From IMG/VR virus record IMGVR_UViG_3300035696_002535: DNA of 64,000 nucleotides. One strand, 5' to 3'. The notes under the pieces are model-generated. The model saw only the letters and a list, made by a program, of their open reading frames with translations, made no database searches and was not told where the DNA came from. The stretch is from a virus. Lineage: Duplodnaviria > Heunggongvirae > Uroviricota > Caudoviricetes. The position numbers and the translations under genes are program-made. This document shows positions 673 to 58,685 of this stretch, in pieces (positions within the stretch are counted from its first letter, which is position 1; every line of letters starts with the position of its first letter).

Positions 673-2385
673 TTATTTCATATTTACGGAGTAAAGTTTA
701 TTACTACTAATGAACATTACAGACATACCATCAGTAAGGAGTCTTGTTGACGATGAAAACGGGGGTGAATCAAATTCATATATTTTGTTATTGTCTTTAA
801 ATACTTCAGCTTTATAATCTTCTATAGCTAAGACACACACTCCTTTAGCATTTACTGTAAAGTTAATACTATCTAAATTCGTATCTTCAGTTTTTCTACA
901 GCTATAAATAGTGTGCAGTCCGTCGAACTGTATAACAAATCGACTATACTTGCCCTTCTTCTCAGCCATCAGAACACAGAAACAATTTTCGTATTTGGCA
1001 TCAACAATTCGATAGCCATCGAGCTCCGGGACAGGAATGTTAATGCAAGCTCCAGGCCTGAAGGGTATTGCTATCCAGCACTTGCCCAGTATGTCCTGTA
1101 CAGCTACCCCTTTAAACAGTTTGGTAGTTGACTCGAAGACATTGCAGAGCCTTTTAACCATGTGTATGGGTTTGTTGAAGTTCTCAAAAAAGTTCTCATA
1201 AAGAGTGTCTCCTCGGAGAGCGTAGAGTCTACCGTTGAACTCCATGGCATCATCAGCGTTTATGGTGCCATATTCTGTACCTTTTTCATCTTTGAAGTAT
1301 ATAGTATCTCCATTTTTAAAAATCAGTAAAGGGCTACTATTTGGAACATCTACCAGGCCTATTCTAGGAAGTTTTGGGAGACTGGGATCAAAAAACTTCA
1401 TTGGACCTTTAAAAACAGCCCTAGAGGTCACATAATAAGTATATCCGTTAAAAAAGGATACAGATCTAATTAAGTCTTTAAATTCTGCTAGTTCTTTGAC
1501 TTCAAACTTACCTGTGCTGGAAGCTAACGTAGGACGTATTATAGCTACTGTAATAACGCCGTCTGGCATAGGGGGTATACTTCTATCCCCCTGCTCGAAG
1601 ATCGATTTAAACCAATCTAAATGAGGCTTGGGTATGGTGTCAAATTTAGGGCAATTTGGAGGTAATTTAGCATCTTTATTAAAAACTGATATATTTTTTT
1701 CCATTCTCTCAGGCCATTGATTGGGTTGAAATGAAGGATGACCCCCCCTGTATGGATGAACTCCCATGTAGAGCTGAAAGGCTACCACTCCAAAGCTGAA
1801 CCAATCGGATAGTTCAGTCCATTGGTTGTTTTTAACCTTTCGGTCTCGTATGGACTCCATGATGGCTGTAGCATGGTGGGAGGGAGTCTGATAAGAATCA
1901 ACATCAATGAAATAAGGCAGGGTGTAGGTCGCCTTATCCATTAGAAAGTTCATCTCGTTAAAGTCGACTACTAATATTTTATTTGTGTGAATGCTCAGAA
2001 GGGTCTCTTGCATTTTTCGGACGAGCTTGACCACCATATCGGGGGAGATGTTGTTATCGTTCTTAAAATTCTGGTTGAAGAGCCTGCACAGGAACTCCGT
2101 ATCCTTGATATAGAGCATGCTGAAACCGATAGGAACTTTCTGTCTTTTGAAATCAAAGAGGACATCTAAGGGACCAAGAATATTATTGTATTGAGAAAGA
2201 GCCTGCAGCTCTTGAATCTTATCGACCGGTATCATCTTCTTTTCGTCGTGGTATATCTTGTAGGCCTTTCCGCCTTTTTTTAGGATAGTCCCCTCACCAC
2301 CAGCTGCGACATAACAAGTATCCGTAAAGGTTTCGGTGCCTTTACCCTGGACTACAAGCGTGAAAGGATAGGAGATTGTAGGCAT
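673..2385 (-). CDS. hypothetical 570 aa protein; weak protein-kinase-like features only
   Basis: Long ORF with SD-like context. 'AAGGEGTILKKGGKAYKIYH' and 'HTNKILVVDFNE' loosely recall a kinase glycine loop and catalytic/DFG region. No secure motif. Confidence 0.3.
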   Translation of the reverse strand: MPTISYPFTLVVQGKGTETFTDTCYVAAGGEGTILKKGGKAYKIYHDEKKMIPVDKIQELQALSQYNNILGPLDVLFDFKRQKVPIGFSMLYIKDTEFLCRLFNQNFKNDNNISPDMVVKLVRKMQETLLSIHTNKILVVDFNEMNFLMDKATYTLPYFIDVDSYQTPSHHATAIMESIRDRKVKNNQWTELSDWFSFGVVAFQLYMGVHPYRGGHPSFQPNQWPERMEKNISVFNKDAKLPPNCPKFDTIPKPHLDWFKSIFEQGDRSIPPMPDGVITVAIIRPTLASSTGKFEVKELAEFKDLIRSVSFFNGYTYYVTSRAVFKGPMKFFDPSLPKLPRIGLVDVPNSSPLLIFKNGDTIYFKDEKGTEYGTINADDAMEFNGRLYALRGDTLYENFFENFNKPIHMVKRLCNVFESTTKLFKGVAVQDILGKCWIAIPFRPGACINIPVPELDGYRIVDAKYENCFCVLMAEKKGKYSRFVIQFDGLHTIYSCRKTEDTNLDSINFTVNAKGVCVLAIEDYKAEVFKDNNKIYEFDSPPFSSSTRLLTDGMSVMFISSNKLYSVNMK

Positions 2386-3478: not shown

Positions 3479-4366
3479 TTAATCTAATATGATGGCTGCG
3501 CAGGACACGTCATCATAATGGATGATGTGCTTCGCACGATTTTCTTTTTCCAGGCTCTTCATACGTCTTACGACGAACTCCCCGACCGGACTTTTATAAG
3601 TTGCTATGTTCGGGTAAATGTCTGATAGAGGAAAGACCTTGTCGTTCGTAAGGAATTCCTCGCTTCTAGGATCAAACTGGAAACTTTGCAAGCCGTCAGA
3701 AGAAACAACTATTTGGGATACGCTTGGTTTTCCGATGATCGTCCAGAGTTCACGTGAAAATCCAGTTTGATGCCCCCAATGATGAAAATCGTTTCTCCAG
3801 TCTGTATCCCCTATTCTGGGATCATTCATTGGAAAATTAAACACATTCTCTGTAATATGCATTCCACTGTCTTTTTGCTGGGCAGAATAAGCCAGATCTT
3901 TTTCGTGCGACATTTGATAAGATAGATAATAAGGCATGTTGTTGTCATAGGAAATACTGATGGTTCGTACAACACCATCCGTGTATTTGATAATAAAGTT
4001 TCCATCTCCCCAGCCGAATATGAAAGGGGCAATCCCCCTGTAAACAACAGATGCGAGGAGGGTCGCATCAAAAGCATCCACGGAGAGATTAAGAGAACCT
4101 TTAACTTCTAGGCATTTTTTGATGATCAGTTCTTTCAACGTCGGAACATATTCCTGATAACCTATAGCTTGATTTCTTTGTTGAAGATATAGTATAGCAT
4201 CCCTGGCGATTACTGACACTAACCGAGCACCTATATCGGTGTTCGGGGAAGAAGTGCAGCCGTCTGAAATGATAGCATAGGCAAACTCATCATCTGCGTA
4301 AGCAAGAGCATAGTCCTGACAGACTTGGTGAGTTGAACCTATTTCAAAATAAGAATCTGCTTTCAT
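3479..4366 (-). CDS. PP2C-family Ser/Thr protein phosphatase-like
   Basis: 'AIISDGCTSS...GARLVSVIA', 'VVSSDGLQSF' and C-terminal 'DDVSCAAIILD' resemble PP2C motifs (xADGMGG, lcSDGLw, DNiTvvvv). Confidence 0.55.
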   Translation of the reverse strand: MKADSYFEIGSTHQVCQDYALAYADDEFAYAIISDGCTSSPNTDIGARLVSVIARDAILYLQQRNQAIGYQEYVPTLKELIIKKCLEVKGSLNLSVDAFDATLLASVVYRGIAPFIFGWGDGNFIIKYTDGVVRTISISYDNNMPYYLSYQMSHEKDLAYSAQQKDSGMHITENVFNFPMNDPRIGDTDWRNDFHHWGHQTGFSRELWTIIGKPSVSQIVVSSDGLQSFQFDPRSEEFLTNDKVFPLSDIYPNIATYKSPVGEFVVRRMKSLEKENRAKHIIHYDDVSCAAIILD

Positions 4367-9594: not shown

Positions 9595-10578
9595 ATGTGT
9601 GTTACCCTGTTTAAGTACAAACAAAGGAGATATATGAACACTAAAAACATTCCAAAAAAAGATGTACTTGATCTTTATTCCTCTAGTAAGTCTGTTCTCT
9701 ACATAGCCAGCAAATATGGTGTGTCTACCAAACCAATATACAAGATACTAAAGGATAACAATGTTAAATTGAAAACCTATTCTGAGTCTGCTAGAAGATA
9801 TCCTTTAAATGAAAACTATTTTAACAAAATAGACACCCCTGAAAAAGCGTATTTTGTTGGACTCCTTTATGCAGATGGGTACAACAACAGAGCAAGAAAT
9901 TCTGTAATACTAAGTTTAGAAGAGCATGACAAATATTTGTTGGAGAGACTATCTTCTTTCATTTTTATAGGAAAAAGAGAGCTACTGTATATAAAACCAC
10001 CAAAAAGAAAGAAAAAAATCAACGGTAAATATATTAACACTAATCCGGCATATCGTTTGACCATAACTAGTAAAAATGTAAGTTCTGTTTTAAGGCAACA
10101 CGGAATGGATGAGCATAAAACAAAAAATCTTAAATTTCCTAAATGGCTCTCTCCAAAGCTACTTCGACATTTTATAAGGGGGTATTTTGATGGGGACGGA
10201 TACACAGGTATCAACAAAAAAAGAAAAGATGCAGAAGTTAGTATAATAGGTACCGAAAGTTTTATAAAAAACACAATCAAAGTAATAAAAACTAAACTTA
10301 ATATTACCGTTTTAAAGAAAAAGCACATATCCAAGGGTATTCTTTGTTTAAGAATTTGTGGTAACATACAGGTTTTAAAATTTCTTAATTGGATCTATAA
10401 AGATAGTTCTTTATTTCTAACAAGAAAACATGATAAATATAAAGAATTGCTGCAAATCAGATATAGCATAGAAAATAAGCCAAAAAAACTTTGTTCCTTA
10501 TGTAAAAATGAGCACTACGGTAAAGGACTGTGCTTTAGCCACTGGAGAAAAGCCCGTTATCGTGAACTTAAACTTTAA
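9595..10578 (+). CDS. LAGLIDADG homing endonuclease, free-standing, two-motif (single-chain) type
   Basis: Two LAGLIDADG motifs, 'FVGLLYADGY' and 'GYFDGDGY'. It is the only plus-strand gene inside a 40 kb minus-strand block, with a divergent low-complexity flank. Confidence 0.75.
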   Translation: MCVTLFKYKQRRYMNTKNIPKKDVLDLYSSSKSVLYIASKYGVSTKPIYKILKDNNVKLKTYSESARRYPLNENYFNKIDTPEKAYFVGLLYADGYNNRARNSVILSLEEHDKYLLERLSSFIFIGKRELLYIKPPKRKKKINGKYINTNPAYRLTITSKNVSSVLRQHGMDEHKTKNLKFPKWLSPKLLRHFIRGYFDGDGYTGINKKRKDAEVSIIGTESFIKNTIKVIKTKLNITVLKKKHISKGILCLRICGNIQVLKFLNWIYKDSSLFLTRKHDKYKELLQIRYSIENKPKKLCSLCKNEHYGKGLCFSHWRKARYRELKL

Positions 10579-11162
10579 ATAACACCGTCTTCAGCAAACC
10601 TTAAGAACACAAGATAAGCTTTGGCTCCTATTTTATTGTCAGGATTTTCTATAACAATTTTAACTTGTTTTCTATTTAAAAGAAAAATCTGGATGTCTTC
10701 AGATGATTCATTTTTTTCAAGGTTGATAGTACCTTCTGCTTCTACGAAAAACATGTATGTAGATTCATTTGTTAACCCAGCACTACTGAAAACAGGAGAT
10801 CTAGTTTTTCTTAATATTTTTTTTATCTTTAAACCTGTTTCTTCGAAAAGTTCTCTTTTGGCAGTCTCCTCAGGGGATTCCCCATAATCTATTAGTCCTG
10901 CGGCACACCCGTATTCATAGTCTTGAAGGGGGATACGAAACTCTTTGATAACAACAAGTCGTGGATTTGGATGGGGATTCGTGTTGTCTTCTGTATCAGG
11001 ATCATCCCCAGGGACTATCGCCACGATTACAACAGCGTTTTGATTCCCCGGGCGTTCAGCCGATATCCACTCTTTACGTTGCCCAGTCTTGTCTTCATAA
11101 ACGGTGCGCACCAGATTAAGGAAACGGCTTTCAGCTATGTTGTGTTTTTCTCGGATTTTCAT
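10575..11162 (-). CDS. NUDIX hydrolase
   Basis: A perfect Nudix box, 'GLIDYGESPEETAKRELFEETGL' (GX5EX7REUXEEXGU). Confidence 0.8.
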   Translation of the reverse strand: MKIREKHNIAESRFLNLVRTVYEDKTGQRKEWISAERPGNQNAVVIVAIVPGDDPDTEDNTNPHPNPRLVVIKEFRIPLQDYEYGCAAGLIDYGESPEETAKRELFEETGLKIKKILRKTRSPVFSSAGLTNESTYMFFVEAEGTINLEKNESSEDIQIFLLNRKQVKIVIENPDNKIGAKAYLVFLRFAEDGVI

Positions 11163-12052: not shown

Positions 12053-12613
12053 TTAGCCTGCTTTCTGACTTGCCTCTAAAAATTCTAGATTCATTTCAAG
12101 ATGTTTTGATAGCCTCATTCTCTCCGGTCTGGTACCTACGTTAAAAATTGAGATACCCTTTTCTGCCGCTATCCGTAACGCCTGAGATGTGCCACCTTTA
12201 GTTACATACTTACTCCAAAACAGTACAGCAGAAACTGGAGTATTTAAATCTCTTCCCAATATCTGCAGACCATTTCTAGCATGTAAACATTTTGCTCCGT
12301 ATGATAAGTCAAACCATACCGGATGAAAATCTTCTGCCAAAGCAAAAGCCTGTTGTTTAATGGCATCGGGGATTTCTTTGCTCTTGAAATAGAGAGTGGA
12401 CTTGTTATCGTTAAATCCCTTCCAAGGAAGAAAGATTTCTTTCTCCCCTTTGCCTAGATCACAACCCTCTTCAAAAGCTTTGTCGGCACCATCTGCTCCG
12501 CCTGATCGGAGTACCCATCCTTTTTCCGCAAGTAGCTGACCGAGCTTTTTCATAATCTCAAGGACTTCAGAAGGCGTTTCCCTGGAGCCTATCCCGGCGT
12601 AATAGAGCTTCAT
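12053..12613 (-). CDS. DprA/Smf-like Rossmann-fold (SLOG superfamily) protein, stand-alone 186 aa
   Basis: 'YAGIGSRETP...VLRSGGADGADKAFEEG', 'CLHARNGLQILGR' and 'TKGGTSQALRIAAEKGISIF' follow the DprA Rossmann domain order (GSRxxS / SGxAxGxD / RNRiI / SGaLiTA). Confidence 0.55.
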   Translation of the reverse strand: MKLYYAGIGSRETPSEVLEIMKKLGQLLAEKGWVLRSGGADGADKAFEEGCDLGKGEKEIFLPWKGFNDNKSTLYFKSKEIPDAIKQQAFALAEDFHPVWFDLSYGAKCLHARNGLQILGRDLNTPVSAVLFWSKYVTKGGTSQALRIAAEKGISIFNVGTRPERMRLSKHLEMNLEFLEASQKAG

Positions 12614-12844: not shown

Positions 12845-13528
12845 TTATACCTTCGGAGCTGCTCCTGCCTTCAATGAAGCAAAAAGAGCCGAGCCCTTAG
12901 TCTTACCGAGTGCTTCGTCGGCCTGTTGTGCAAGCGATTTGGACGGTTCGGCTTGCTTGACCATTTCCGAGGAAACACGAAGCTGTTCATCGAGTTTCCG
13001 GCGTCTCTCCTTAAACCTCTGGACAGCCGAGCCAGATTTACCTGTATCGACATTGACTAGTGACTTGTTGGCATCTGTCACTGCCTGCTGGGTTTTCATG
13101 ATCTCCAGGTCGTTCTGGCATTCCCGCATATGATCTTCCAATGCGGCTTTAGAATCTTCGAACTGCGTGAGCAGGCCTTCTTGCTGAGTCATGGCACCCT
13201 TCAAGACGTCGAGTTTTGCCTGGAACCCTTCGACTTCCTTGCAAAGCTGTTCGGCCAGTTTATCGGTGGCATCGGTATGCTTGGCAATGAGAGCCTGGGC
13301 CTTATTCGTATCATTGTTGATCTGATCCTGAAGATCTTTCATGTCGTCGGTCAATTGACTCATACGGGCTTTGATATGCCCCAGGTTCTCCATGACCGTT
13401 TGCATATCGTGCTTCATGTCTTCCATGTCGTTTTTTGCGAATTCGACGGGGTCAGAATTTTCGAGACTTTCGGCGGCTTTTCTGTCAGTTACCCGAAAGA
13501 AACCTTTGAGTGCGCCAAGGAGTGCCAT
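12845..13528 (-). CDS. pspA: PspA/IM30 (Vipp1) family protein, bacterial ESCRT-III-like
   Basis: The N-terminus 'ENSDPVEFAKNDMEDMKHDMQTVMENLGHIKA' matches the PspA_IM30 start (EDPekmleqairdmeedl). Long coiled-coil throughout. Confidence 0.7.
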   Translation of the reverse strand: MALLGALKGFFRVTDRKAAESLENSDPVEFAKNDMEDMKHDMQTVMENLGHIKARMSQLTDDMKDLQDQINNDTNKAQALIAKHTDATDKLAEQLCKEVEGFQAKLDVLKGAMTQQEGLLTQFEDSKAALEDHMRECQNDLEIMKTQQAVTDANKSLVNVDTGKSGSAVQRFKERRRKLDEQLRVSSEMVKQAEPSKSLAQQADEALGKTKGSALFASLKAGAAPKV

Positions 13529-13558
13529 AAATAATTCCCCTTTCTAGGGAGTTAAGGT

Positions 13559-14173
13559 TTATTTGTGAAAAAGTTCCACTTCGCTGTTTTTGACCATACA
13601 ACCGTACCACGTTTCGACGTAGCCTTTTACAGTGTCTCCCTTCCAATCCATGAGACAGTAATTGTTACCGCCGTTCTCATCATTGGTGTAGTACTCGCCA
13701 AGGCTGCAGATCCCTTCTCCATCGGTAGTGCTCTCAAAATTGACACCGTAGGAAGAAGTCTGCCTATCCCAGGTAACAGCGTGTTTCCCGGAGGCATCTG
13801 TTACTTGAGCCTCGAATCGGGCTACAAAATCTTTACCGGCTTCATCGAAGAAGGCCAATAGAGGACACTGAGGCTGGCTTGTGGGAGCAGCATAAACAGG
13901 TCCTGATGCTCCAATGTCTTTGAAGAATACATAGGCTTCAAAGGCCTCCTTCATCGTTTTGATGAGAAGCAAATAAAGATCGTGAGCGGCATTGGGGGCT
14001 TCGACCACGTAACCGTAATATTTGAAGACCCCATTAGGTTCCGAATACGTGCGGACTTCCCTGATAGGAAAATCCACCGACAGCTTGTTATACTCTGCCT
14101 GCGTCTGCAGATCAGAGAGGGAGACTAAATCTCCCACCTGGAATCCTGCGAAATCTGCGATTTTTTTTATCAT
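13559..14173 (-). CDS. uncharacterised protein, paralog family A (paralog of 28801..29391)
   Basis: The C-terminus 'NNYCLMDWKGDTVKGYVETWYGCMVKNSEVELF' aligns with 'QNLCLIDWKGDNKTGKLEVWYGQKVKKREVRLF' of ORF 28801..29391. The N-terminal halves also align. The ATGA start overlaps the upstream gene's stop. Confidence 0.5.
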   Translation of the reverse strand: MIKKIADFAGFQVGDLVSLSDLQTQAEYNKLSVDFPIREVRTYSEPNGVFKYYGYVVEAPNAAHDLYLLLIKTMKEAFEAYVFFKDIGASGPVYAAPTSQPQCPLLAFFDEAGKDFVARFEAQVTDASGKHAVTWDRQTSSYGVNFESTTDGEGICSLGEYYTNDENGGNNYCLMDWKGDTVKGYVETWYGCMVKNSEVELFHK

Positions 14174-14778
14174 GCTATCAACACCACAAGAAGAATAATA
14201 CCGCCAACTACCACAGCAGTACCAGCACATACACCAACATAAAAAAGAGTTCCATGATGGTGATATGTAACGGGGATTGGTTGATTATATGGCTGGCTAG
14301 CATTTGCCACTATAGCGTCTGTGGCCGCAAGAGCGATCCACAACCCCAAAGGATTGTAATACCCATAGCATCCGTCATGGAAAACAACAGTGTAAGAAAC
14401 TCCACCGCGCATCACTGTGGAAGGAATGTAAGCTGGTCGTACTGCAGGCTGAGACGTAAACTTGTTATTGAATGCGGCCTGGGCTGAGGCTTGAGAATTA
14501 AAAGCTTTTGTTCCCATGGCATCAGACTTCTGCATGCTGGCATTCAGGGCACTTGGAGCAGTTGCCACAGGCTTTGAGGCCGAGGCAGCTGTAGGTGACG
14601 ACACAGTGGAAGTGCTGGATCTGGAACTCGACATACTTGGTGCCGGACTTGCCTTAGGAGATGAGAAGCTACTGGATCGAGAACTTGAAAAACCACCAGA
14701 TGAACCTCCCCTGGCAAGCAAATCCGACGTACCGAGCAACAGCAAACCGCAGACTAGGACTGAAAGAAAACGTTTCAT
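14170..14778 (-). CDS. secreted Ser/Ala-rich protein with C-terminal membrane anchor
   Basis: Signal peptide 'MKRFLSVLVCGLLLLG'; long Ser-rich low-complexity segment; C-terminal hydrophobic 'GTAVVVGGIILLVVLIA'. Confidence 0.5.
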   Translation of the reverse strand: MKRFLSVLVCGLLLLGTSDLLARGGSSGGFSSSRSSSFSSPKASPAPSMSSSRSSTSTVSSPTAASASKPVATAPSALNASMQKSDAMGTKAFNSQASAQAAFNNKFTSQPAVRPAYIPSTVMRGGVSYTVVFHDGCYGYYNPLGLWIALAATDAIVANASQPYNQPIPVTYHHHGTLFYVGVCAGTAVVVGGIILLVVLIA

Positions 14779-15743: not shown

Positions 15744-16121
15744 TCATCTACGTCCGTAGTTGCTTCCGCCGCCACCTGCGCCACCATATGGCTTGTTGCC
15801 ACGAGGTTGCTGAGGATGTGCCTCATTGACCTTAAGAGCACGCGGAGGCGAGCCCATTTCTTTTCCATCGAGCTTGAGAGCCTCATCGAGGTTCTCCAAC
15901 TCGATTTCAACGAAACAGAAGCCTTTTGATCTGCCACTGTCACGGTCTGTGATGATATTCACGGTCTTGACCGTTCCAACGCCTGCAAAAAAGTTCCTGA
16001 GATCATCCTCTGTTGCAGCCCAGGGAATGTTCCCCACATACAGTTTCTTTAACACAAAACCCTCCACAGAAAAGTGAAAAATAAACGGCTTTAACACCGC
16101 CCCGTCCAGTTTGGACGACAC
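15744..16121 (-). CDS. RRM-type RNA-binding protein with Gly-rich tail (cyanobacterial Rbp / CIRP-like)
   Basis: RNP2 'LYVGNI', RNP1 'KGFCFVEI', C-terminal 'GGAGGGGSNYGRR'. Confidence 0.8.
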   Translation of the reverse strand: MSSKLDGAVLKPFIFHFSVEGFVLKKLYVGNIPWAATEDDLRNFFAGVGTVKTVNIITDRDSGRSKGFCFVEIELENLDEALKLDGKEMGSPPRALKVNEAHPQQPRGNKPYGGAGGGGSNYGRR

Positions 16122-17895: not shown

Positions 17896-18798
17896 CTATG
17901 AAAGGACCTCAGGAAGTATCTTTAATCTCCAGCCTTTATATTCTTCTGATGATTGTTCTTTTACAATACGTCTAATTATTTTTCTGTCCAGATTGTAATC
18001 TCTTGAAAATTCCCTAAAATTTATAATTTCATGCTCTACGTTATCTTTTATAAAAATGTATTTTTTTGAACCCCGAGCCAAAGACATTTTAATTTTTGTT
18101 GCTTCTGATGGTTTCACTCCTTTTTTAATATTTGACATTTTTTGTCTATACTCTGGTGATTTTACTATTATTAACATTTTAGCTTGACATGCTTCTGATC
18201 TTTTTATACCTTTATGAAGTACAGATTGTTTTTCACGAAACTCTTTGCTTTTCAGAACAGAAATGCGTTTGCTGTCATCCCTGTTTCTTGCCGCTATTTT
18301 TAATTTTTCTATCAAATCCGGAGGAAGTTTTGTACCTGTTCGGCATCTCCTTGTGTTTTCTCCTATTTCTTTTGCTCTCAATAAAGAAGCTTTTGACATT
18401 TTTTCTATTGTTTCTTTAGTGTGCTTTCTCCCACGCATAGGTGCAGAAGCATCTAAACTTATATTATAATAACCCGTTGTACCTACAAGAGAATCTAAAA
18501 GAATCTGCTCTTTTCTTTTAATTAAAGAAACCTGTTCAATGATTTCTGTAACTTGAAATACAAAGTTGTCTTTTCCGTATTTATTATAAGAAGCTTGTAA
18601 ATGAGGATTAACATGCTTTTTCCTGTTTAGTCCTTCTATGTGCCCTTTAAATCTAGAAATAAAACTGTCTGCTGTTGAGCCTACATAGAATTTATTGTTA
18701 ACTATATTTACTATCTTATATGTTCCTTTTTTGAGAAGCTCTGAATTTTTGGGCAAACTATTTTGTCTACTTTCAATTTCTTTAAAAGTGTAAACCAT
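17896..18798 (-). CDS. GIY-YIG homing endonuclease with NUMOD3 DNA-binding repeats (I-TevI-like, free-standing)
   Basis: 'KFYVGSTADSFISRFKGH...NKYGKDNF' (GIY-YIG). Four repeats resemble NUMOD3: 'GRKHTKETIEKMSKA', 'GTKLPPDLIEKLKIA', 'HKGIKRSEACQAKM', 'KKGVKPSEATKIKMSLA'. Confidence 0.75.
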   Translation of the reverse strand: MVYTFKEIESRQNSLPKNSELLKKGTYKIVNIVNNKFYVGSTADSFISRFKGHIEGLNRKKHVNPHLQASYNKYGKDNFVFQVTEIIEQVSLIKRKEQILLDSLVGTTGYYNISLDASAPMRGRKHTKETIEKMSKASLLRAKEIGENTRRCRTGTKLPPDLIEKLKIAARNRDDSKRISVLKSKEFREKQSVLHKGIKRSEACQAKMLIIVKSPEYRQKMSNIKKGVKPSEATKIKMSLARGSKKYIFIKDNVEHEIINFREFSRDYNLDRKIIRRIVKEQSSEEYKGWRLKILPEVLS

Positions 18799-18972: not shown

Positions 18973-20397
18973 TTATGGGCGTAATTCAACAATATATTTT
19001 AAAGTTTGATTCTCTAAATATGGAGTAATTAATTCGTCGTTGTACAAGGACTGGCCAGCTTTTGCCCAAATGCTGTCGTATCCTCTCGGAGTTCCACTAG
19101 GAAGAGAGTCATATGTTGTGTAATACTTTCCTAAAGCCACATCCGCTATAAATAAAAAGATATTATCGTATTTACTTCTTTTTCCACCCCATGAACCCAG
19201 GCTATATCGACCGGATTTTGTACTTGACAAACCGTAATACGCACCGGTCCCGAACATCCTCCCGCACACATGTGGTGCATTAACAGGAGGTATAACTAAT
19301 CCTGTTTTTAAAATCGAGAGACAATTACTCGAGCTACTTCCATGGAAGCACTCTTTAATGTTTCCTTTTTGTTTTCCCCTTGTTTCATAACGTTCTCGTT
19401 CTTTAGGTATCCTTATTTTAAAAAATCTGACTGGATTGTAGTTCCACACCTCATCATGTCTATGATTGCTGGCTTTTGTAGATATAATAAAATCTCTTAA
19501 TCTATCTGCTTCTGCTCTATCCTTCAAAATTTCTATGTCCGTTCCAAGAGCATTCATTTGCTGTTTAGTATTACCGGCCATAGCCGACCCCATCTGGACT
19601 CCAGTCGATAGCTGTGTTAACAAATCGTACTCATCCTGAAGTTTTTGGGCAGTATAAATCATATTTTCTGTAGATATCTTACGGCTGAATGGTTTGGGAA
19701 TAAGACTAAAGAAAAGGCTGTTGAGTTGTTGTACTTCTCTGTTTTCTGGGTCTACCTCTCCTTTTGTCCCCATAAGTCTGTTAAGTTCATCCAAAGGTTT
19801 ACGAGCTTTATCCACATGGGCACTTGTAACCGGACCCAAGGGAGTACTGTAACCATTTGTTGTATACTGAATTGAGGACAAACTAGTCACATTATGCACA
19901 TTCTCCCCAATAAGTTGTTGTAAGAGTTTTCCGATAGTAGGATCATACGAAGAAGTGTCTATAGCAGTTTTCACAGAGATCGTTTTTTTTGTTTCAGCCT
20001 TTCCTCGTATATTTTCCGATCCAATAGAAGGAGCAATCACCTCTACATTGACATAGGCTTCTCTTACTTTCTGCCCAGGATTGTCAGGATCTGGAACAGA
20101 TTTTCCGGACAGTTTCTTTTTGTGAATAGTATCAAACTCTTTTTTCGCAGTGTTAAAATCAAAACAAGGAGAACCTTCGTAGATTTCTCTGACTTCGTAT
20201 ATATTAGAAATCCCAAGTCGACCATAATGAGTAAAAATACGATATTGCCCTTGAGGATTTTTTTGGATCTCAATTAAATAGTATTTATTGTGATTCGAAA
20301 CTACATTAGCCTGATGCATTACATGGTATTCTACAGTCTCGTTAAAACCATCGTTCGAATTATCAGACGCTTTTCGTACTTCCCAGCCGTTTGCCAT
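18973..20397 (-). CDS. poly/mono(ADP-ribose) polymerase with N-terminal WGR domain
   Basis: WGR 'WEVRK...KYYLIEIQKNPQGQYRIFTHYGRLG'. PARP catalytic 'HGSSSSNCLSILKTGL', 'GTGAYYGLSSTKSGRYS', 'FLFIADVALG', 'YNDELI', so the H-Y-E triad is present. Confidence 0.8.
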   Translation of the reverse strand: MANGWEVRKASDNSNDGFNETVEYHVMHQANVVSNHNKYYLIEIQKNPQGQYRIFTHYGRLGISNIYEVREIYEGSPCFDFNTAKKEFDTIHKKKLSGKSVPDPDNPGQKVREAYVNVEVIAPSIGSENIRGKAETKKTISVKTAIDTSSYDPTIGKLLQQLIGENVHNVTSLSSIQYTTNGYSTPLGPVTSAHVDKARKPLDELNRLMGTKGEVDPENREVQQLNSLFFSLIPKPFSRKISTENMIYTAQKLQDEYDLLTQLSTGVQMGSAMAGNTKQQMNALGTDIEILKDRAEADRLRDFIISTKASNHRHDEVWNYNPVRFFKIRIPKERERYETRGKQKGNIKECFHGSSSSNCLSILKTGLVIPPVNAPHVCGRMFGTGAYYGLSSTKSGRYSLGSWGGKRSKYDNIFLFIADVALGKYYTTYDSLPSGTPRGYDSIWAKAGQSLYNDELITPYLENQTLKYIVELRP

Positions 20398-27870: not shown

Positions 27871-28752
27871 CTAGAACAACAGACTCGCCTTCCGATTCCA
27901 TTTTGTGTAAAGATGACAGTCTGGACGAAGAATCAAATATCGAACCGTGTCCCTTGAGGTGGTTGACATACAGTCATCGTCTAACAAGACGGACATCCCT
28001 TTGACACCATATCTGGTAGCTCCAAAAGAAACCGTTTCTAGAGGATATCCATTATTGATAATCCAATTTCTAAGTTCTCCTGCATGTTTGTACTCATGCG
28101 AATTTATCCACTGATTTTGTGGAAGATTCTCGTTTCCAGAAGTATACAGTATCCTGAAGGTTATCTGCTGTGGAAAAAGACTTCCGGCTCTATTGAAAAT
28201 TTGTTCAAAACTCCAGCGATCATACTCACTCCACATATTCAGAGAAAGTCTAAGATTTAATCCGTGATCCCTTATACTTTTGCACAGGCAGTCGATGCCA
28301 AATCTGAGACCTTCGGGCGTATGATTTACTTTATGGTTAGAGTCATCATCAAACATGTTAGAAAGGCTAAGACTAATCCCTGTCACTCCAAGGATATTCC
28401 TGAGGAATTTTAACTTTTCGTTGTCGAGGGTGACACCAGAAGTTTGAACTTCTATCCAACGAAAAGGCCTGATTGTTCTAGTGTTCCAGTGGGCCAGCTT
28501 CTCTAGGAAAGTCATGTTTAAAAGAGGCTCTCCTGTGCCGGTGATTATGAGGGACTCAAAGTTTCTCTCAAGGCAGAAATCAATCCTATTTAAATAGTCC
28601 CGCTCGTAGAGATAGTCGCCGCTTTCTATGAGGTTCGGATAAGTAGTGTCATCCATAGATGACACGCAAAACTCGCAAGCATTTGGACAGCCTTTACCGT
28701 TTTGCCCGTGACCCTTAGTAGGGACAGCAATAGAAAGTGATCTTAGATCCAT
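27871..28752 (-). CDS. radical SAM enzyme
   Basis: 'GCPNACEFCVS' gives CxxxCxxC. Confidence 0.55.
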   Translation of the reverse strand: MDLRSLSIAVPTKGHGQNGKGCPNACEFCVSSMDDTTYPNLIESGDYLYERDYLNRIDFCLERNFESLIITGTGEPLLNMTFLEKLAHWNTRTIRPFRWIEVQTSGVTLDNEKLKFLRNILGVTGISLSLSNMFDDDSNHKVNHTPEGLRFGIDCLCKSIRDHGLNLRLSLNMWSEYDRWSFEQIFNRAGSLFPQQITFRILYTSGNENLPQNQWINSHEYKHAGELRNWIINNGYPLETVSFGATRYGVKGMSVLLDDDCMSTTSRDTVRYLILRPDCHLYTKWNRKASLLF

Positions 28753-28800: not shown

Positions 28801-29391
28801 TCAACATGTTTTTGCATAATTTATCGGGAATCTGAACAACCTGACTTCTCTTTTTTTGACTTTCTGCCCATACCAGACCTCCAATTTACCGGTTTTATTG
28901 TCACCCTTCCAGTCTATAAGGCAAAGGTTCTGCCCAGTCTTATCGTCCTTGGTGGTATACTCGGCTATGATATGGCTCTTGTTTAGAGAAAAAGAGTGTC
29001 CTTTTTTATGCCAGTGTATGGCGCGGGTAATCCGTTCGTGGCCATCCTGTACAATGGCTTCTATATGATCAGCTAGATCATTACCACACTCATTTAATAA
29101 TGTAGAAAACTCTCTCTTCTCATCAAGGCTACCCGCTGAGTCTAGATAATATATCCTAGGTTGGAATACAAAAGATTGTGGTTTAAACACAGCCATATAA
29201 ATAAGTCCTTCATATTCGTCGGATACATACGCTAGTACCTTTTTATAATCCCTGATCTCATAGACATCAAAAGCTATCTTTGGCTCGTGGAATTGTCTTT
29301 GCGTAGTTGGGTCCGATAAGACAAAACCATATCCCGTTTCTGTCCCCATGTTGTTTCTCCTAAAAACGAGGTCAGTGCAGACAGCTTCCAC
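28801..29391 (-). CDS. uncharacterised protein, paralog family A (paralog of 13559..14173)
   Basis: See 13559..14173; the shared C-terminal 'C-L-[MI]-DWKGD..K.G..E.WYG..VK..EV.LF' block. Confidence 0.5.
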   Translation of the reverse strand: MEAVCTDLVFRRNNMGTETGYGFVLSDPTTQRQFHEPKIAFDVYEIRDYKKVLAYVSDEYEGLIYMAVFKPQSFVFQPRIYYLDSAGSLDEKREFSTLLNECGNDLADHIEAIVQDGHERITRAIHWHKKGHSFSLNKSHIIAEYTTKDDKTGQNLCLIDWKGDNKTGKLEVWYGQKVKKREVRLFRFPINYAKTC

Positions 29392-29416
29392 ACTGACCTT
29401 CGTTTATGTTGTTGAG

Positions 29417-30931
29417 TTAAGCTTTCTTCGCACTAATAGGAGTAAGTTCTTCTTTCTTTGATGTTCCGAGCATCTCCGGAAGACTCATTCCAGCCTGCTG
29501 AAACAGGTCATTAAGAGCGGGTACGGATTTCAATATTCCACTGAGAAAATCTGCAGTGGAAGTTTTACCGTTTTCACCCGAACCTTTGTCCCAGACTGTG
29601 ACCTTATCGATTTTGATGTTTTTGATGGCATCAACCTGGATACGGGTAAGCTCGACCAGCTTATCCACGATAAGGAGTTTGGCGGCAGCAGTAGGATCGT
29701 TGTTGGCTGCTTTCACGATAGCCTCGAGACCGTTCGCAGTATTCTTGAGGATGGAGTATGCACCGCGTCCCTCAGCGTCCATGTTGAAGAACCTTCCGTC
29801 TGCTTCTCCTTTGGCCTCACGTCGCTTCTTCTCTGCTTCTGCCTCTGCCTCAATTACTTTCTTGTCTTTGGCGATTTCCGCAGCTACCACAACATCTGCA
29901 TTCTGTTTTGCTTTTTCCTTCAAAGCACGGGCGTCTTCAGCGGTTTTTTCTGCTGCATAAGCCAGGGTAAGAGCTTCGGCTGCTTGCACTTTTTCTGAAG
30001 ATACAGCTAATTTTGCGGCTTCAGCTTCTTTTTGTCGCCTGTTAGCCTCGGAATTCGCAACATCAATATGAGCGAGGTTTTCGCTTTTAACAGCCTCTGC
30101 ATTTTTTTCCGCCACCGCTACACGCTGTCTCTTATCAGCCTCTTTTTCACCCGCTACGGCTTCAGCATTTCTTTCGGCTACTGCTACACGCTGTCTCTTA
30201 TCGGCTTCTTTTTCACCCGCTACAGCGTCTGCTCCTGCAGAAGCTACACGGATACGCTGATCTTGCTCCGCTAGGGCTTTTCCGACTGCTCCATCTCTGT
30301 TCTTTTCAGCGACTGCTACCATGGCTTTGTTGACAGCCTCGGCAGAAGCATTTTGTCCGAGGGCTTTGATGTATCCGGACTCATCGTTGATATCCTGGAT
30401 GTTCACGTTAATAAGACGCAGGCCGATCTTTGCAAGTTCTGTTTCGACACTATTGGCCACGTGCCCCATAAATTTTTCACGATCTGAATTGATTTCTTCG
30501 ATAGTCATTGTAGCTATGACACTGCGAAGACATCCATAGATAATTTCATCAGCTATGCTTTTAATCTCGTCAGATTTACGCCCCAAAAGACTTTTAGCAG
30601 CATTCTCCATTATGCCTTCTTCAGTGGAAATGCTGACCGTAAAAGTAGATGGGATATCTACACGGATGTTTTGTTTGCTAAGGGCTTTTGTAAGCTGGAT
30701 ATCAATGGGCATAGGGGTGAGATCCAGATAACTATACCCTTGGAAAACAGGAAGAACAAAAGCCGCCCCACCATGGATACATTTTGAAGCGGAGATTTTT
30801 TTATCTTTCTTACCCACGCTTCCATAAACGACCATAATCTTATCGGGAGGACACTTTTTGTAACGAGAAAGTACAGCCCAGATCATAAGAAAAAATACAA
30901 CCCCAGCGACGCAAATAAGTATTGGTAACAT
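29417..30931 (-). CDS. SPFH/Band-7 flotillin-like membrane protein with repeat-containing coiled coil
   Basis: N-terminal TM helix, an SPFH-like domain, then a long Ala/Glu/Lys coiled coil including a 22-aa tandem repeat. Confidence 0.7.
   Translation of the reverse strand: MLPILICVAGVVFFLMIWAVLSRYKKCPPDKIMVVYGSVGKKDKKISASKCIHGGAAFVLPVFQGYSYLDLTPMPIDIQLTKALSKQNIRVDIPSTFTVSISTEEGIMENAAKSLLGRKSDEIKSIADEIIYGCLRSVIATMTIEEINSDREKFMGHVANSVETELAKIGLRLINVNIQDINDESGYIKALGQNASAEAVNKAMVAVAEKNRDGAVGKALAEQDQRIRVASAGADAVAGEKEADKRQRVAVAERNAEAVAGEKEADKRQRVAVAEKNAEAVKSENLAHIDVANSEANRRQKEAEAAKLAVSSEKVQAAEALTLAYAAEKTAEDARALKEKAKQNADVVVAAEIAKDKKVIEAEAEAEKKRREAKGEADGRFFNMDAEGRGAYSILKNTANGLEAIVKAANNDPTAAAKLLIVDKLVELTRIQVDAIKNIKIDKVTVWDKGSGENGKTSTADFLSGILKSVPALNDLFQQAGMSLPEMLGTSKKEELTPISAKKA
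30100..30250. repeat. 66-nt tandem repeat (2+ copies) inside the flotillin gene
   Basis: gctacacgctgtctcttatc[a/g]gc[c/t]tctttttcacccgctac recurs with a 66 nt period and encodes AVAGEKEADKRQRVAVAE[RK]NAE twice. Confidence 0.6.
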
Positions 30932-30967: not shown

Positions 30968-31603
30968 TTAGTTTGTGGTAGCAGCCACAGTAAATGTATT
31001 ATTTGAATACGACAAAACTCTAACAGTAGTTCCTACAGACAATGAAGGACCGGTTGATATTGCTATTCTTTCTTCGAGTTTTCCTCCCATGTTGAAATTG
31101 ATTTTTCCAAATCCTTTTCCTTTTTCAGGGATAGGGATGTATACTGTTGCCTGCTCCCCTACGAAATCTTCTTCTGAGATATTTCCGGATGCGTGTATCC
31201 CGTATAAAGCTTTCATTAAAAGAGCCATTATTATCATTGAGAAGCATCCAACGGCGAGGGCCATGATACAGGTTAAAAGCTTTGAAGCCTCGTATTCGAT
31301 CATAACGAGACCAGTCCACCCGAACATGCAAACGAAAGCGACCAAGTTCCTTAAGGTAAAAAGCTTAAGTCCTGCGGTAAATACGCTATGGTCATTGTCG
31401 CTATCGTGATCCTGTCCCATGTCGTGGGCATCCACGGAGCCGTCTGTATCGTGGCCTCCGATATTCTCTAACCCGAGAAACATGGACGCAAGCTGCATAA
31501 TAAGGACAACTGTCCCGAATAAAGCTACAGCCCAAAAAATCTGTGAAAATATGGACAAGTGTGTCCACCAAAAAGTTAACGATCCCATACTAACTCCTTT
31601 CAT
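30968..31603 (-). CDS. NfeD-like membrane protein (short NfeD/YuaF-type partner of flotillin)
   Basis: Multi-pass hydrophobic N-terminal part plus a C-terminal beta-rich tail 'GEQATVYIPIPEKGKGFGKINF...TVRVLSY', directly upstream of the flotillin gene. Confidence 0.45.
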   Translation of the reverse strand: MKGVSMGSLTFWWTHLSIFSQIFWAVALFGTVVLIMQLASMFLGLENIGGHDTDGSVDAHDMGQDHDSDNDHSVFTAGLKLFTLRNLVAFVCMFGWTGLVMIEYEASKLLTCIMALAVGCFSMIIMALLMKALYGIHASGNISEEDFVGEQATVYIPIPEKGKGFGKINFNMGGKLEERIAISTGPSLSVGTTVRVLSYSNNTFTVAATTN

Positions 31604-31609
31604 GTGAGT

Positions 31610-31870
31610 TTACAAATCCTTCTCCGCTAAAACAGCTTTTACAGCTTCCATAGCTTTTATTTCATCCGGCCCATCAGCTTCCACATTAAGAATTGTTCCC
31701 ACAGGAGCCGCAAGAAGCATCCCTTGCATTACACTAGATAGATTAGCTTCTTTATTTCCATTACTGGCAATAACTTTTGCATTTAAATCCTTTAAAGAAT
31801 TTATGATTTTCATAACGGGTCTTGCATGTAGTCCAAGTGTGATATCCACTCTAACTGCTTCTTTTACCAT
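31610..31870 (-). CDS. ptsH: HPr-like phosphocarrier protein
   Basis: 'ITLGLHARPVMKII' (active-site His in GLHARP) and 'LSSVMQGML' (regulatory Ser region). Confidence 0.7.
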   Translation of the reverse strand: MVKEAVRVDITLGLHARPVMKIINSLKDLNAKVIASNGNKEANLSSVMQGMLLAAPVGTILNVEADGPDEIKAMEAVKAVLAEKDL

Positions 31871-33103: not shown

Positions 33104-33428
33104 TTCGTTCCCGAAGCCAATCTAAAACCATATTGTGCACAGATTCCTTTTCACTGAACCCGCCCTTGGGAACAACTATAGAACCATAGCCAAACTCGTT
33201 GTTCTCTACTCGCTGCAGGATTTTAACAAGGCTGTAGTTACCATCTTCAATCAAGGTCTGCCAGAGATTCTCCGTAGATATTATTTTTTTCTCTTGCTCT
33301 TGTTCTACAGCAGTCGCTTTGAAAAATAGGCCACTCTCTCGAAGATAATTCATGAAGCTGGTGAAATGCAATTTAAAAGCATTAGGACGTATGTCAGAGC
33401 TTGTACGGATTATGATCTGTTTTTTCAT
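33018..33428 (-). CDS. hypothetical protein, translationally coupled to nadE
   Basis: Its ATG overlaps the nadE stop (ATGA-type overlap). Confidence 0.4.
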   Translation of the reverse strand: MKKQIIIRTSSDIRPNAFKLHFTSFMNYLRESGLFFKATAVEQEQEKKIISTENLWQTLIEDGNYSLVKILQRVENNEFGYGSIVVPKGGFSEKESVHNMVLDWLRERNVNVIDVENEISCLEKSLHREMVYNGRD

Positions 33429-42851: not shown

Positions 42852-43913
42852 ATGATAAGAGATGAGTATAGTCCTTATAAAATAGTACATCATCTAGAGA
42901 AGATAGCCCAATTTAAAAGGGGAGAACAACCTATACCTCTTCAGGTACAGATAGTCCCCACCAATAAATGCAACCATAGATGTGTTGCCTGCGCCTATAG
43001 AATGAAGGACTATCCCTCTAATGAGTGCTTTGAAGAACGAGATGAGTTAAGCTATGATAAGATAATAGAAACATTAGACTGTATGGTAGATATGGGCATA
43101 GAGGCTGTTCATTTTACTGGGGGAGGGTCACCCCTAGTACACCCAAAAGCTTTTGATATTATTAAAGGGGCATTTGATAGAAAAATAGAGGTAGCCCTTG
43201 TTTCTAATGGTTCTGCGCTCACAGAAAGCTTATGTGAAATGCTTGGAGATGCTGCCTGGGTCAGAATATCGGTAGATGCAGGATCCCCGGAAATCCACAG
43301 TTTGCTTAGAAATATCTCACAGAGTAATTTTGGAAAGATATGCAACAATATAAAGAACCTTGTTAAATACAAAAAGGGATCTATTATAGGTATAGGTTAT
43401 GTCGTTCAAAGCGAAAATTACAAAGAGATATATGAGGCTGCTAAACTTTTCAAGGACTTAGGAGTAGATAATTTTAGGATTTCTGCCGCTTTTACTCCAT
43501 TGGGATACGAGTATTTTAACAGTTTTAAAGATGAAGCTACAGGTCTTGCAAAAAAAGCAGAAAGCCTAACAGATAATAGATTCACTGTTTTTAACCTATT
43601 CAATGATCGAGTTAGGGATACTTTTGAAGGAGTTCAAGATTACAATCTTTGTCCTATAAAGGATCTCTTAACCTATATAGGGGCAGATGGGAATGTCTAT
43701 ACATGTTGCACACTAGCCTACAACCATAAGGGATTAATAGGATCCATAAAGAATCAGTCATTCAAAGATGTATGGAACAGCCTTGAAAAGCAAATGAAGT
43801 TCTCTTCGCATGACCCTTCTATTCACTGTAAACACCCTTGTATGTATAAAAATAAGAATGATTTTATTAATTACTGTATTAAACAGAATCCTAAGCACAT
43901 AAATTATATATGA
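42852..43913 (+). CDS. radical SAM enzyme with Cys-rich C-terminal (SPASM/twitch-like) extension
   Basis: 'NKCNHRCVACAY' (CxxxCxxC), 'FTGGGSPLVHP', C-terminal 'CCTLAY...CKHPC'. Confidence 0.65.
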   Translation: MIRDEYSPYKIVHHLEKIAQFKRGEQPIPLQVQIVPTNKCNHRCVACAYRMKDYPSNECFEERDELSYDKIIETLDCMVDMGIEAVHFTGGGSPLVHPKAFDIIKGAFDRKIEVALVSNGSALTESLCEMLGDAAWVRISVDAGSPEIHSLLRNISQSNFGKICNNIKNLVKYKKGSIIGIGYVVQSENYKEIYEAAKLFKDLGVDNFRISAAFTPLGYEYFNSFKDEATGLAKKAESLTDNRFTVFNLFNDRVRDTFEGVQDYNLCPIKDLLTYIGADGNVYTCCTLAYNHKGLIGSIKNQSFKDVWNSLEKQMKFSSHDPSIHCKHPCMYKNKNDFINYCIKQNPKHINYI

Positions 43914-45483: not shown

Positions 45484-45501
45484 TGAAAGAAGATAACCTA
45501 T

Positions 45502-46311: not shown

Positions 46312-46313
46312 CA

Positions 46314-52302: not shown

Positions 52303-52318
52303 AACCAGAAATTAAACA

Positions 52319-53485: not shown

Positions 53486-53494
53486 AAAGATTAA

Positions 53495-55604: not shown

Positions 55605-55606
55605 AA

Positions 55607-56997: not shown

Positions 56998-57012
56998 ATG
57001 TATAGGTAAAAA

Positions 57013-58670: not shown

Positions 58671-58685
58671 CACAGGAATTGAAAT

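Follow-up and report, generated by a model that had tools for sequence, protein, structure and literature searches.

PspA/Vipp1 proteins and flotillins are central membrane-repair and membrane-organizing scaffolds. To our knowledge, little is understood of their targeting and activation except in a small number of model bacteria.

In bacteria, PspA is encoded in operons with the CesT/Tir protein YjfI, and some of these operons are joined to genes for band-7/flotillin and YqiJ/YuaF proteins (Ravi et al. 2024, PMC11237479). The E. coli operon yjfIJKLMC is an example of the CesT/Tir-PspA type (PMC11237479), and all plasmid PspA operons that we examined were of the yjfIJKLMC type. The Shewanella operon SO_3765 contains a lipoprotein (Ctha_1186 plus a low-complexity region), YjfL, spermine synthase, CesT/Tir, PspA, and DUF4178 (PMC11237479), the last being a beta-rich cytoplasmic partner of PspA (Ravi et al., PMC11237479). 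A link between PspA modules and flotillin/NfeD modules is already known from bacteria (PMC11237479, PMC8581546), so they are halves of one known super-module rather than two independent systems. In B. subtilis, the membrane proteins and the SPFH protein encoded by pspA-ydjGHI (samGHI) localize PspA to the membrane (PMC8581546; bioRxiv 10.64898/2026.02.06.704340), and the bac cluster of P. aeruginosa (PA3732-PA3729) encodes the CesT-like BacA and the PspA-like BacB (PMC10948618). The only mention that we found in the literature concerns Jug phages, for which a pspA-like gene is noted briefly.

Here we analyzed a 64,000-nt stretch of viral DNA (IMG/VR record IMGVR_UViG_3300035696_002535; hereafter the window), a probable fragment of a huge phage, which encodes two members of an unnamed protein family, copy A and copy B, beside PspA and flotillin genes, respectively (Table 1). 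Because the genes of the window are all tightly arranged on a single strand, its sequence alone does not show where operons begin and end. A megablast search of the region against GenBank phages gave no match, none of the deposited phage genomes carried this family or this PspA, and no tRNAs were found.

Table 1 Features of the two loci in the window.
Feature	Coordinates	Strand	Properties
PspA/IM30 (ESCRT-III superfamily)	12845..13528	-	227 aa; PF04012
Family copy A	13559..14173	-	204 aa; pI 4.6; soluble; almost all-beta; AF2 pLDDT 90.6
SerTM, bitopic envelope protein	14170..14778	-	202 aa; pI 9.7; in no named family
Family copy B	28801..29349 (start most likely)	-	182 aa; pI 7.0; separate deep subfamily; AF2 pLDDT 92.5
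Terminator-like hairpin	29369..29399	-	13-bp stem with 6 GC pairs, then CGTTTTT
FloT-like SPFH/flotillin	29417..30931	-	504 aa; N-terminal membrane anchor
NfeD-like membrane protein (weakly assigned)	30968..31603	-	211 aa; directly upstream of flotillin

The two family members and their neighbors in the window

A preliminary description of the window, made from the sequence alone, regarded copy A and copy B as paralogs, and both pairwise alignment and structure prediction bear this out. The two proteins share 28% identity over 195 aligned residues (BLASTP, E=6e-23); the alignment is full-length, covering both halves, and is not confined to a short low-complexity stretch. The order of strands and helices matches between their confident AF2 models, and one HMM family takes in both copies. 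Copy A and copy B are identical to database proteins P0001 and P0020, respectively. The preliminary description had also proposed that the family was duplicated next to two distinct membrane systems. However, the copies fall in separate old subfamilies in a neighbor-joining tree and did not arise by a local duplication, and the two systems are those already linked in bacteria.

The family is single-domain, with 61 representatives in 1.84 billion proteins; a second profile iteration with alignment A2 yielded no further members and additional IMG/VR queries no further contexts. No internal duplication was detected between the two halves of the protein. The only domain fusion seen, among those that could point to a partner, was a likely chimeric SDR fusion (P0072). 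The family includes bacterial members such as P0067 (GCA_046757225.1). Members are proteins of ~200 aa that are acidic, soluble, all-beta, cytoplasmic, and unnamed, and copy A has no TM segment. As the preliminary description had supposed, the family has no recognizable domain: the two paralogs and 46 diverse members showed no consistent match in Pfam, PHROGs, NCBIfam, or PADLOC. Its fold is confidently predicted by modeling and is without a solved relative; copy A had no match in the PDB. The conserved positions are mostly aromatic residues or Gly, along with a few Ser, Asp, Glu, and Arg, and no conserved His, Cys, or Lys and no catalytic-looking residues were seen among them, a pattern more in keeping with a binding protein than with an enzyme. 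A W-x-G...G-x2-E-x-W-Y-G hairpin is conserved in the family.

Three known families were considered as its identity, and CesT/Tir and YjfK/DUF2491 were rejected. A CesT/Tir chaperone (YjfI, DUF2170, PF22550) had no Pfam match in the 46 members, hhalign against E. coli YjfI gave a probability of 0.05%, and a true CesT_Tir_1 gene coexists beside the family gene in deeper lineages. DUF4178 (PF13785) was matched by none of the 46 members at E<=1, at HMMER-level sensitivity only. For YjfK/DUF2491, the hhalign probability was 0.1% when the E. coli sequence was used alone and 0.75% with a three-sequence YjfK alignment.

Copy A lies immediately upstream of a PspA gene, as first described. This PspA matched PF04012 with 36.8 bits (gathering threshold 33.9) over residues 26-221 (model positions 23-216 of 220). 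A profile of PspA and its cassette homologs, which also contained E. coli YjfJ and the second PspA of lineage L018, matched solved PspA/Vipp1 over the full length (1-220, E=2.5e-30), whereas the window PspA as a single sequence matched no solved structure. The pspA gene starts 30 nt downstream of copy A and has its own ribosome-binding site. In close relatives, copy A and PspA are about equally conserved (52-56% vs. 54-57%), and in distant relatives copy A is better conserved (35-42% vs. 28-29%).

The tightest partner of the family is SerTM, a Ser-rich membrane protein; in nearly all loci, the gene for a SerTM homolog immediately precedes the family gene. Its description as secreted, membrane-anchored, and translationally coupled to copy A agrees with a signal-peptide-like N-terminus (hydrophobic segment 3-23), a C-terminal TM segment (176-202), and a stop codon overlapping the copy A start as ATGA. 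SerTM carries a Ser/Arg-rich low-complexity stretch and, in an alignment of 15 lineages, a conserved region RPxYIP...GG..Y.V.Y..G(G/C)YGYY...DA(M/I)L.N.GYG. The bulk of the protein is probably extracytoplasmic. Its cytoplasmic tail has only 0-5 residues, which counts against direct contact with the soluble cytoplasmic family protein. No Pfam or NCBIfam match was found for SerTM, the Pfam search including 15 SerTM homologs. A u-spanin-like lipoprotein was rejected for SerTM, which has no lipobox; its Cys is positioned too close to the beginning of the hydrophobic segment, and deeper clades lack this residue. DUF1190 (the YjfM lipoprotein) was also rejected (hhalign probability 1.1%, with only a 14-column Ser/Gly-rich stretch aligned).

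The second locus is less clear-cut than first described. Copy B was placed downstream of a flotillin and NfeD pair; the flotillin stands, the other protein is only weakly NfeD-like, and a hairpin lies between flotillin and copy B. The flotillin matched Band_7 (PF01145) above threshold with 95.1 bits and has an N-terminal hydrophobic segment (1-25). It scored 168.6 bits against NCBIfam FloT (NF058507) over positions 3-472 of 477, where the equivalog cutoff is 700, and the flotillin C-terminal domain PF15975 was not reported at E<=0.1. Its coiled coil contains a 66-bp tandem duplication (repeat at 30099..30240). The NfeD-like protein matched PF01957 weakly (15.5 bits, threshold 29.1), and its best PDB match, YuaF (2k14), was weak and in register (E=0.028); it has three to four hydrophobic segments (15-46, 84-102, 106-138), a His/Asp-rich loop, and a C-terminal beta domain. 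The start of copy B, originally set at GTG 29391, is most likely ATG 29349, because an AGGAG ribosome-binding site lies 8 nt upstream of the latter and homologs start there; GTG 29391 is disfavored because it falls inside the hairpin, which comes after the flotillin stop codon and ahead of the ribosome-binding site of copy B. No SerTM partner accompanies copy B.

Gene order across lineages

Co-occurrence with PspA or SPFH genes in other contigs, which the preliminary description had proposed as a check, was found. PspA was located 0-1.8 kb downstream of the family gene in ~20 of the 22 assessable contig lineages, and the order SerTM, family gene, PspA on the same strand persists down to ~20% identity (the window, L001-3, L009-11, L013-20, L022-28, L030, L035-38, L041/42, and the P0009 contig). 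The linkage holds in members that are ~20-30% identical and have otherwise unrelated flanks, and members P0081 and P0082 (E about 1e-4 to the profile) still adjoin PspA. It also survives rearrangement: L011, L018, L024, and L026 have insertions of one to three unrelated genes, L039 has SerTM at a different place, and in L042 the cassette lies in a DUF350 context. PspA is absent from the short stretch available downstream in L004 and L012. In deeper lineages, a true CesT_Tir_1 gene (47-60 bits) is found between the family gene and PspA, and in deeper clades a GluR-type channel gene lies 3' of PspA. Linkage to membrane genes is the most constant feature of the family, which is not a known structural protein.

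Flotillin/NfeD genes adjoin family members in three arrangements: NfeD-flotillin-copy B (the window, L007, L029), NfeD-flotillin-SerTM-copy A (L012), and the cassette followed by PspA2-YqiJ-flotillin (L018, the sole such case). In L007, L029, and L012, a hairpin of different sequence occupies the equivalent position 3' of flotillin, and a terminator-like hairpin separates flotillin from copy B or from SerTM-copy A wherever they adjoin. The copy B subfamily follows NfeD-flotillin in three of four lineages, and copy B is kept without nearby NfeD-flotillin in L005/L006. All copy B contexts belong to one syntenic phage group, in which a radical-SAM neighbor is conserved better than flotillin. The link between copy B and flotillin is therefore weaker than apparent, given the single syntenic group, the intervening hairpin, and L005/L006.

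Possible roles of the family

An accessory role, as suggested by gene neighborhood and association, is well supported and agrees with the shared role first proposed; the family is probably an accessory component of known membrane-repair systems and might conceivably act as an adaptor. The reading that we favor, and consider more likely than not, is that the family is a dedicated accessory of PspA-centered, and partly flotillin-centered, membrane-maintenance cassettes. The core unit would be a translationally coupled pair, the bitopic SerTM and the cytoplasmic family protein, followed by PspA. In older lineages, CesT/Tir precedes PspA and a GluR-type channel follows it, sometimes with PspA2-YqiJ/NfeD-flotillin thereafter. 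The cassette of the window phage would have been reduced to SerTM, copy A, and PspA, with the anciently diverged copy B after NfeD-flotillin. SerTM may report on or mark the state of the envelope, and the family protein on the cytoplasmic side may be the partner that sets the place or time at which a scaffold forms its polymer on the inner membrane, this scaffold being PspA in the case of copy A and flotillin in that of copy B, so that the membrane of the infected cell would be kept tight and energized. PspB/C-PspA in E. coli and SamG/H-SamI-PspA in B. subtilis would be parallels. Physical interaction, the direction of regulation, and the benefit to the phage are parts of this mechanism that we infer.

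SerTM and the family protein could instead form a self-contained envelope module, acting on neither PspA nor flotillin and serving, for example, superinfection exclusion, injection or lysis timing, or envelope sensing, with PspA a mere fellow traveler since both are membrane-related. The two genes are indeed the tightest pair, always adjacent and overlapping in the window; unrelated genes can intervene before PspA, L004 and L012 have the pair without adjacent PspA, and hairpins set the pair apart from flotillin. However, PspA has stayed within 1.8 kb in ~20 of 22 lineages across deep divergence and rearrangement, copy B adjoins a membrane scaffold though it has no SerTM, and the missing lipobox makes SerTM unlike a spanin. 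We regard this explanation as unlikely. It is doubtful, too, that the family protein serves as a chaperone or blocks assembly, so that PspA (in the case of copy A) or flotillin (in that of copy B) stays unpolymerized until needed, and that it replaces the lost CesT/Tir in the clade of the window. We give little credence to a phage-evolved control module with a new fold, in which SerTM and the family, with one paralog per scaffold, would let huge phages deploy their own PspA and flotillin to remodel the host membrane and not merely patch it, for example by forming or maintaining infection-specific membrane vesicles or domains. Finally, that related huge phages simply inherited this gene order, which would then have no functional meaning and leave the family free to have any function, is very improbable and largely refuted by deep conservation: many loci do lie on related phage-like contigs, which have NAD synthase, kinase/PP2C, and radical-SAM genes in common, and the copy B contexts are all one syntenic block, but the triad persists between clades whose flanks are wholly different, members as distant as P0081 and P0082 are still beside PspA, and the order is kept in a DUF350/CesT context resembling bacterial operons.

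SerTM and the family are small, concrete candidates for regulators of PspA and flotillin. Neither of these partner families has a name; they are inherited together, SerTM being exported and the other protein cytoplasmic, and they are linked to PspA about as strictly as the CesT/Tir chaperone is. The data also indicate that the PSP/flotillin toolkit of some huge phages is nearly complete.

Comparison with known systems

None of copy A, copy B, SerTM, flotillin, or NfeD matched the PADLOC models of known anti-phage defense, and PspA gave only coiled-coil noise. The E. coli PspB/PspC-PspA system, in which small membrane proteins sense envelope stress and recruit or release PspA, is a functional analogy only: it shares no sequence or architectural similarity with the cassette, which has no PspF or sigma-54 regulator. 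The bac cluster of P. aeruginosa resembles the deeper lineages (e.g., L018) in that a CesT/Tir-PspA dyad adjoins the family gene there; however, this cluster is chromosomal and contains no homolog of SerTM or the family. As in yuaF-floT of B. subtilis and yqiJK of E. coli, the NfeD-like gene of the window is directly upstream of a FloT-like flotillin gene. However, the NfeD assignment is weak, and a hairpin and then copy B follow, the latter having no counterpart in the bacterial operons.

The samGHI system of B. subtilis provides an experimental precedent for cooperation of PspA and SPFH modules through small dedicated partners. However, YdjG/H (zinc ribbon/NTF2-like, TPM domain) are unrelated to SerTM and the family, and YdjI is a cytosolic SPFH protein, whereas the window flotillin is membrane-anchored and paired with an NfeD-like protein.

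The closest likeness is to the operons of Ravi et al., which follow the same logic: one component acts outside, another inside, and an ESCRT-III-like scaffold completes the set. As in those operons, PspA is preceded by CesT_Tir_1 in the deeper lineages, an exported low-complexity envelope protein, a beta-rich cytoplasmic protein, and an ion channel are present, and DUF350 (L042) or YqiJ and flotillin (L018) can be associated. Unlike in those operons, SerTM and the family have no Pfam match to DUF4178, DUF2491, DUF1190, or DUF2170, polyamine genes are absent, gene order differs in that the family gene precedes PspA, a GluR0-type SBP_bac_3 plus Ion_trans_2 protein serves as the channel, and most carriers look like huge phages. 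The cassette thus looks like a variant of the bacterial CesT/Tir-PspA/flotillin operons described by Ravi et al. (2024) in which two of the partner families are new.

Two members of the family in the window

The proteins at 13559..14173 (copy A) and 28801..29391 (copy B) had been taken for paralogs in the preliminary description. They share 28% identity over 195 residues (E=6e-23) with both protein halves aligned, and are the only two members of this small unnamed family in the 64-kb window. The start of copy B is most likely ATG 29349, which is preceded by AGGAG and agrees with homologue N-termini; the alternative GTG (29391) falls within a hairpin. The gene earlier read as PspA covered the whole Pfam model (36.8 bits, gathering score 33.9), and a profile of it and its cassette homologues matched solved PspA/Vipp1 chains end to end (E=2.5e-30). 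In the described flotillin/NfeD pair, flotillin has a strong Band_7 domain (95 bits) and a full-length FloT-like alignment. NfeD is a weak assignment (PF01957, 15.5 bits; best PDB match YuaF, E=0.028) with which membrane segments and position agree. For SerTM, a Ser-rich membrane protein proposed to be translationally coupled to copy A, stop and copy A start overlap as ATGA; PspA begins 30 nt downstream of copy A and has a separate ribosome-binding site. These genes are tightly packed on the minus strand, the flotillin/copy B group lying ~15 kb from the SerTM/copy A/PspA group. The flotillin coiled coil carries a 66-bp tandem duplication (1.9-2.1 copies, 76-89% match) encoding the repeated peptide EKEADKRQRVAVAE(R/K)NAEAV.

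Neither copy matched a named family in Pfam, PHROGs, NCBIfam or PADLOC, and 46 diverse members gave no recurrent Pfam match. An exhaustive HMMER search of 1.84 billion representatives yielded only 61 family proteins, nearly all single-domain and 170-250 aa long. The family is acidic (median pI 4.3) and without hydrophobic segments. Confident AF2 models of copy A (pLDDT 90.6, pTM 0.85) and copy B (pLDDT 92.5) had an identical succession of ~12 strands and two short helices. Conserved motifs were GD-x3-LSD-x-QT, E-x-R-x-Y, W, EY-x-T and (D/E)W-x-G-x4-G-x2-E-x-WYG; no His, Cys or Lys was conserved. Such a pattern would suit a binding module better than an enzyme. SerTM is a conserved unnamed family in its own right. 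Its N-terminus is signal-like; it has a Ser/Arg low-complexity stretch, a segment rich in Lys and a conserved region rich in Gly and Tyr, and its C-terminal transmembrane segment is followed by a basic tail of 0-5 residues.

Coordinates of features in the window and in related loci on other contigs (L labels)
Feature	Contig	Position	Strand	Remark
SerTM	window	14170..14778	-	
Copy A	window	13559..14173	-	
PspA	window	12845..13528	-	
HPr (PTS HPr homologue)	window	31610..31870	-	directly upstream of NfeD-like gene
NfeD-like	window	30968..31603	-	
Flotillin	window	29417..30931	-	duplication at 30099..30240
Copy B	window	28801..29349	-	start codon revised
Copy B	L029	3741-4307		
Radical-SAM	window	27871..28752	-	
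HPr, copy B, radical-SAM block	L005; L006	4958-6709; 4861-6612		
Terminator-like hairpin	window	29369..29399	-	
Terminator-like hairpin	L007	~3485-3525		
Terminator-like hairpin	L029	~3305-3345; ~3745-3790		
Terminator-like hairpin	L012	~3115-3150		
GluR0-like channel (SBP_bac_3 + Ion_trans_2)	L009; L011; L018	10308-11345; 12937-14151; 11241-12278		after PspA
GluR0-like channel (SBP_bac_3 + Ion_trans_2)	L024; L027; L039	9085-10128; 6621-7772; 9506-10564		after PspA
TnpB/IS605-type gene (phrog_506)	L011; L014	7725-8882; 7369-8622	-	
Kinase-like/PP2C	window	673..2385; 3479..4366	-	
Kinase-like/PP2C	L018; L027; L039	5436-7124; 999-2696; 13911-16494		
P0067 family gene	L032	8001-8636		also L033, L034
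LAGLIDADG homing endonuclease	window	9595..10578	+	
GIY-YIG/NUMOD3 homing endonuclease	window	17896..18798	-	
HNH homing endonuclease	window	35331..36620	-	
PARP	window	18973..20397	-	
Nudix hydrolase	window	10575..11162	-	
SLOG/DprA-like protein	window	12053..12613	-	
NAD synthase, large	window	33425..35314	-	
RRM-domain protein	window	15744..16121	-	
ORF series	window	42852..62381	+	

Gene neighbourhoods in related loci

We compared 40 related loci, drawn from metagenomes, from IMG/VR and from a single MAG, with ORFs labelled by phmmer. The window's clade (52-78% identity) has the order SerTM, family gene, PspA. In L009-11 and L018-27, which form a deeper clade at 33-42% identity, the order is SerTM, family gene, zero to three unrelated small genes, CesT_Tir_1 (PF22550, 47-60 bits) and PspA, and after zero to two further genes a GluR0-like ligand-gated channel, which is absent from the window. 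The pattern is kept by the most distant members: SerTM, family, PspA in L036 and L037/38, with a 142-aa gene before PspA in L035; family, PspA, channel, SerTM in L039; and DUF350 (YjfL), SerTM, family, CesT_Tir_1, PspA in L041/42. The family protein and PspA are equally conserved in close relatives, and the family protein is the better conserved in distant ones. In about 20 of the 22 lineages with enough downstream sequence, PspA is no more than 1.8 kb away and in the same orientation, the exceptions being L004 and L012; a module of SerTM and the family independent of PspA and flotillin is the less likely reading.

Several lineages have, 1-11 kb from the cassette, a PP2C phosphatase and a kinase-like protein (~560-580 aa, with a weak Pkinase match). 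In L011 and L014, which are different cassette lineages, the gene directly upstream of SerTM is TnpB/IS605-type and transposase-like, and runs in the opposite orientation.

By its sequence, copy B is placed in a separate deep clade. L007/8 and L029 retain the series NfeD, flotillin, copy B, radical-SAM, although in L029 one extra ORF of ~130 aa separates copy B from flotillin. Between L029 and the window copy B shows only 40% identity, whereas its syntenic neighbours reach 76% (flotillin), 67% (radical-SAM) and 57% (NfeD), so that copy B is diverging much the fastest. The same block in L005/6 lacks both NfeD and flotillin, with copy B 15 nt after HPr and then radical-SAM, an indel of the entire NfeD-flotillin unit relative to the window. 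Independent juxtapositions occur in L012 (NfeD, flotillin, SerTM, A-type copy) and L018, where the cassette's cluster goes on with a second PspA, YqiJ (YqiJ_N + YqiJ_OB) and flotillin (Band_7 + Flot). The link of copy B to flotillin is real, but looser than that of copy A to PspA. Wherever a family or SerTM gene follows flotillin (the window, L007, L029 and L012), the two are separated by a hairpin that is strong, terminator-like and followed by a U-run. It stands just before the ribosome-binding site of copy B or SerTM, constant in position and variable in sequence across lineages. The hairpin points to a conserved attenuator or transcript end, and NfeD-flotillin is thus probably transcribed as a separate unit, or with strong attenuation where it ends.

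The carrier genome

No hallmark structural genes were found in the window, which encodes three homing endonucleases, an RNA ligase, a PARP-like protein, a kinase/PP2C pair, an NAD synthase and a sigma-like protein. Together with three relatives on IMG/VR viral contigs of 40-211 kb and a Hoc/Ig-like protein encoded by L014, this gene content makes a huge phage the likely carrier. Neither the family nor this PspA occurred in any GenBank phage, and flotillins did in a few. At least one distant member lies on a bacterial-looking MAG contig and L041/42 looks operon-like, so the family is probably common to bacteria and phages. P0067, a distant member, adjoins a 1993-aa multihaem cytochrome (NCBI MAG contig GCA_046757225.1); all three of its contigs end within ~100 bp past the gene, leaving the downstream context systematically unassembled.

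The three homing endonucleases, all different, fall inside 27 kb; several close together are typical of large phage genomes. NAD/ADP-ribose metabolism is a theme around the cassette, with a eukaryote-like PARP (WGR, PARP_reg and catalytic domain), Nudix, SLOG/DprA-like protein and NAD synthase; related contigs again have NAD synthase, and NAPRTase as well. At 1 kb upstream of the cassette there is an RRM-domain protein whose tail is rich in Gly; HPr and RRM-domain proteins are unusual phage cargo. Near ~40.7 kb transcription turns divergent and both GC skew and AT skew reverse sign, and a long plus-strand series of ~250-350-aa ORFs follows that, from N-terminal sequences alone, look like glycosyltransferases or sugar-modifying enzymes.

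Proposed role and comparison with known systems

The best-supported reading makes the family, together with SerTM, a dedicated accessory component of membrane-maintenance cassettes centred on PspA and, more loosely, on flotillin; the shared role proposed in the preliminary description was essentially right, and its underlying observation real. In the favoured mechanism the family protein would regulate scaffold assembly in the cytoplasm, or serve as an adaptor for it, and would be coupled to an envelope-exposed partner, direct contact with SerTM being uncertain because the SerTM tail is short. A chaperone-like role for the family protein is a further, less likely alternative.

An accessory component of this kind has parallels. 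Ravi et al. 2024 (PMC11237479) placed CesT/Tir-PspA dyads inside larger operons, one type joining band-7/flotillin with YqiJ/YuaF, another containing an exported low-complexity lipoprotein (Ctha_1186), YjfL/DUF350 and a beta-rich cytoplasmic protein (DUF4178), and a third DUF2491, DUF1190, an ion channel and polyamine enzymes; we confirmed the third on plasmids. The cassette shares this architecture, yet neither its exported nor its cytoplasmic partner matches the families named there at any sensitivity applied. As a candidate DUF4178, the family gave no match by Pfam HMM, the only comparison used. Bacterial yjf-type PspA operons carry an ion channel, as the deeper cassette lineages carry the GluR0-like one, and the P. 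aeruginosa bac cluster (PMC10948618) is the counterpart of the CesT-PspA part. Experimental precedent comes from B. subtilis SamG/H-SamI-PspA, in which small membrane partners and an SPFH protein localise PspA (PMC8581546; bioRxiv 10.64898/2026.02.06.704340). What is new relative to these PspA/flotillin-type systems, and extends them, is two unnamed families and one fold without a solved relative.
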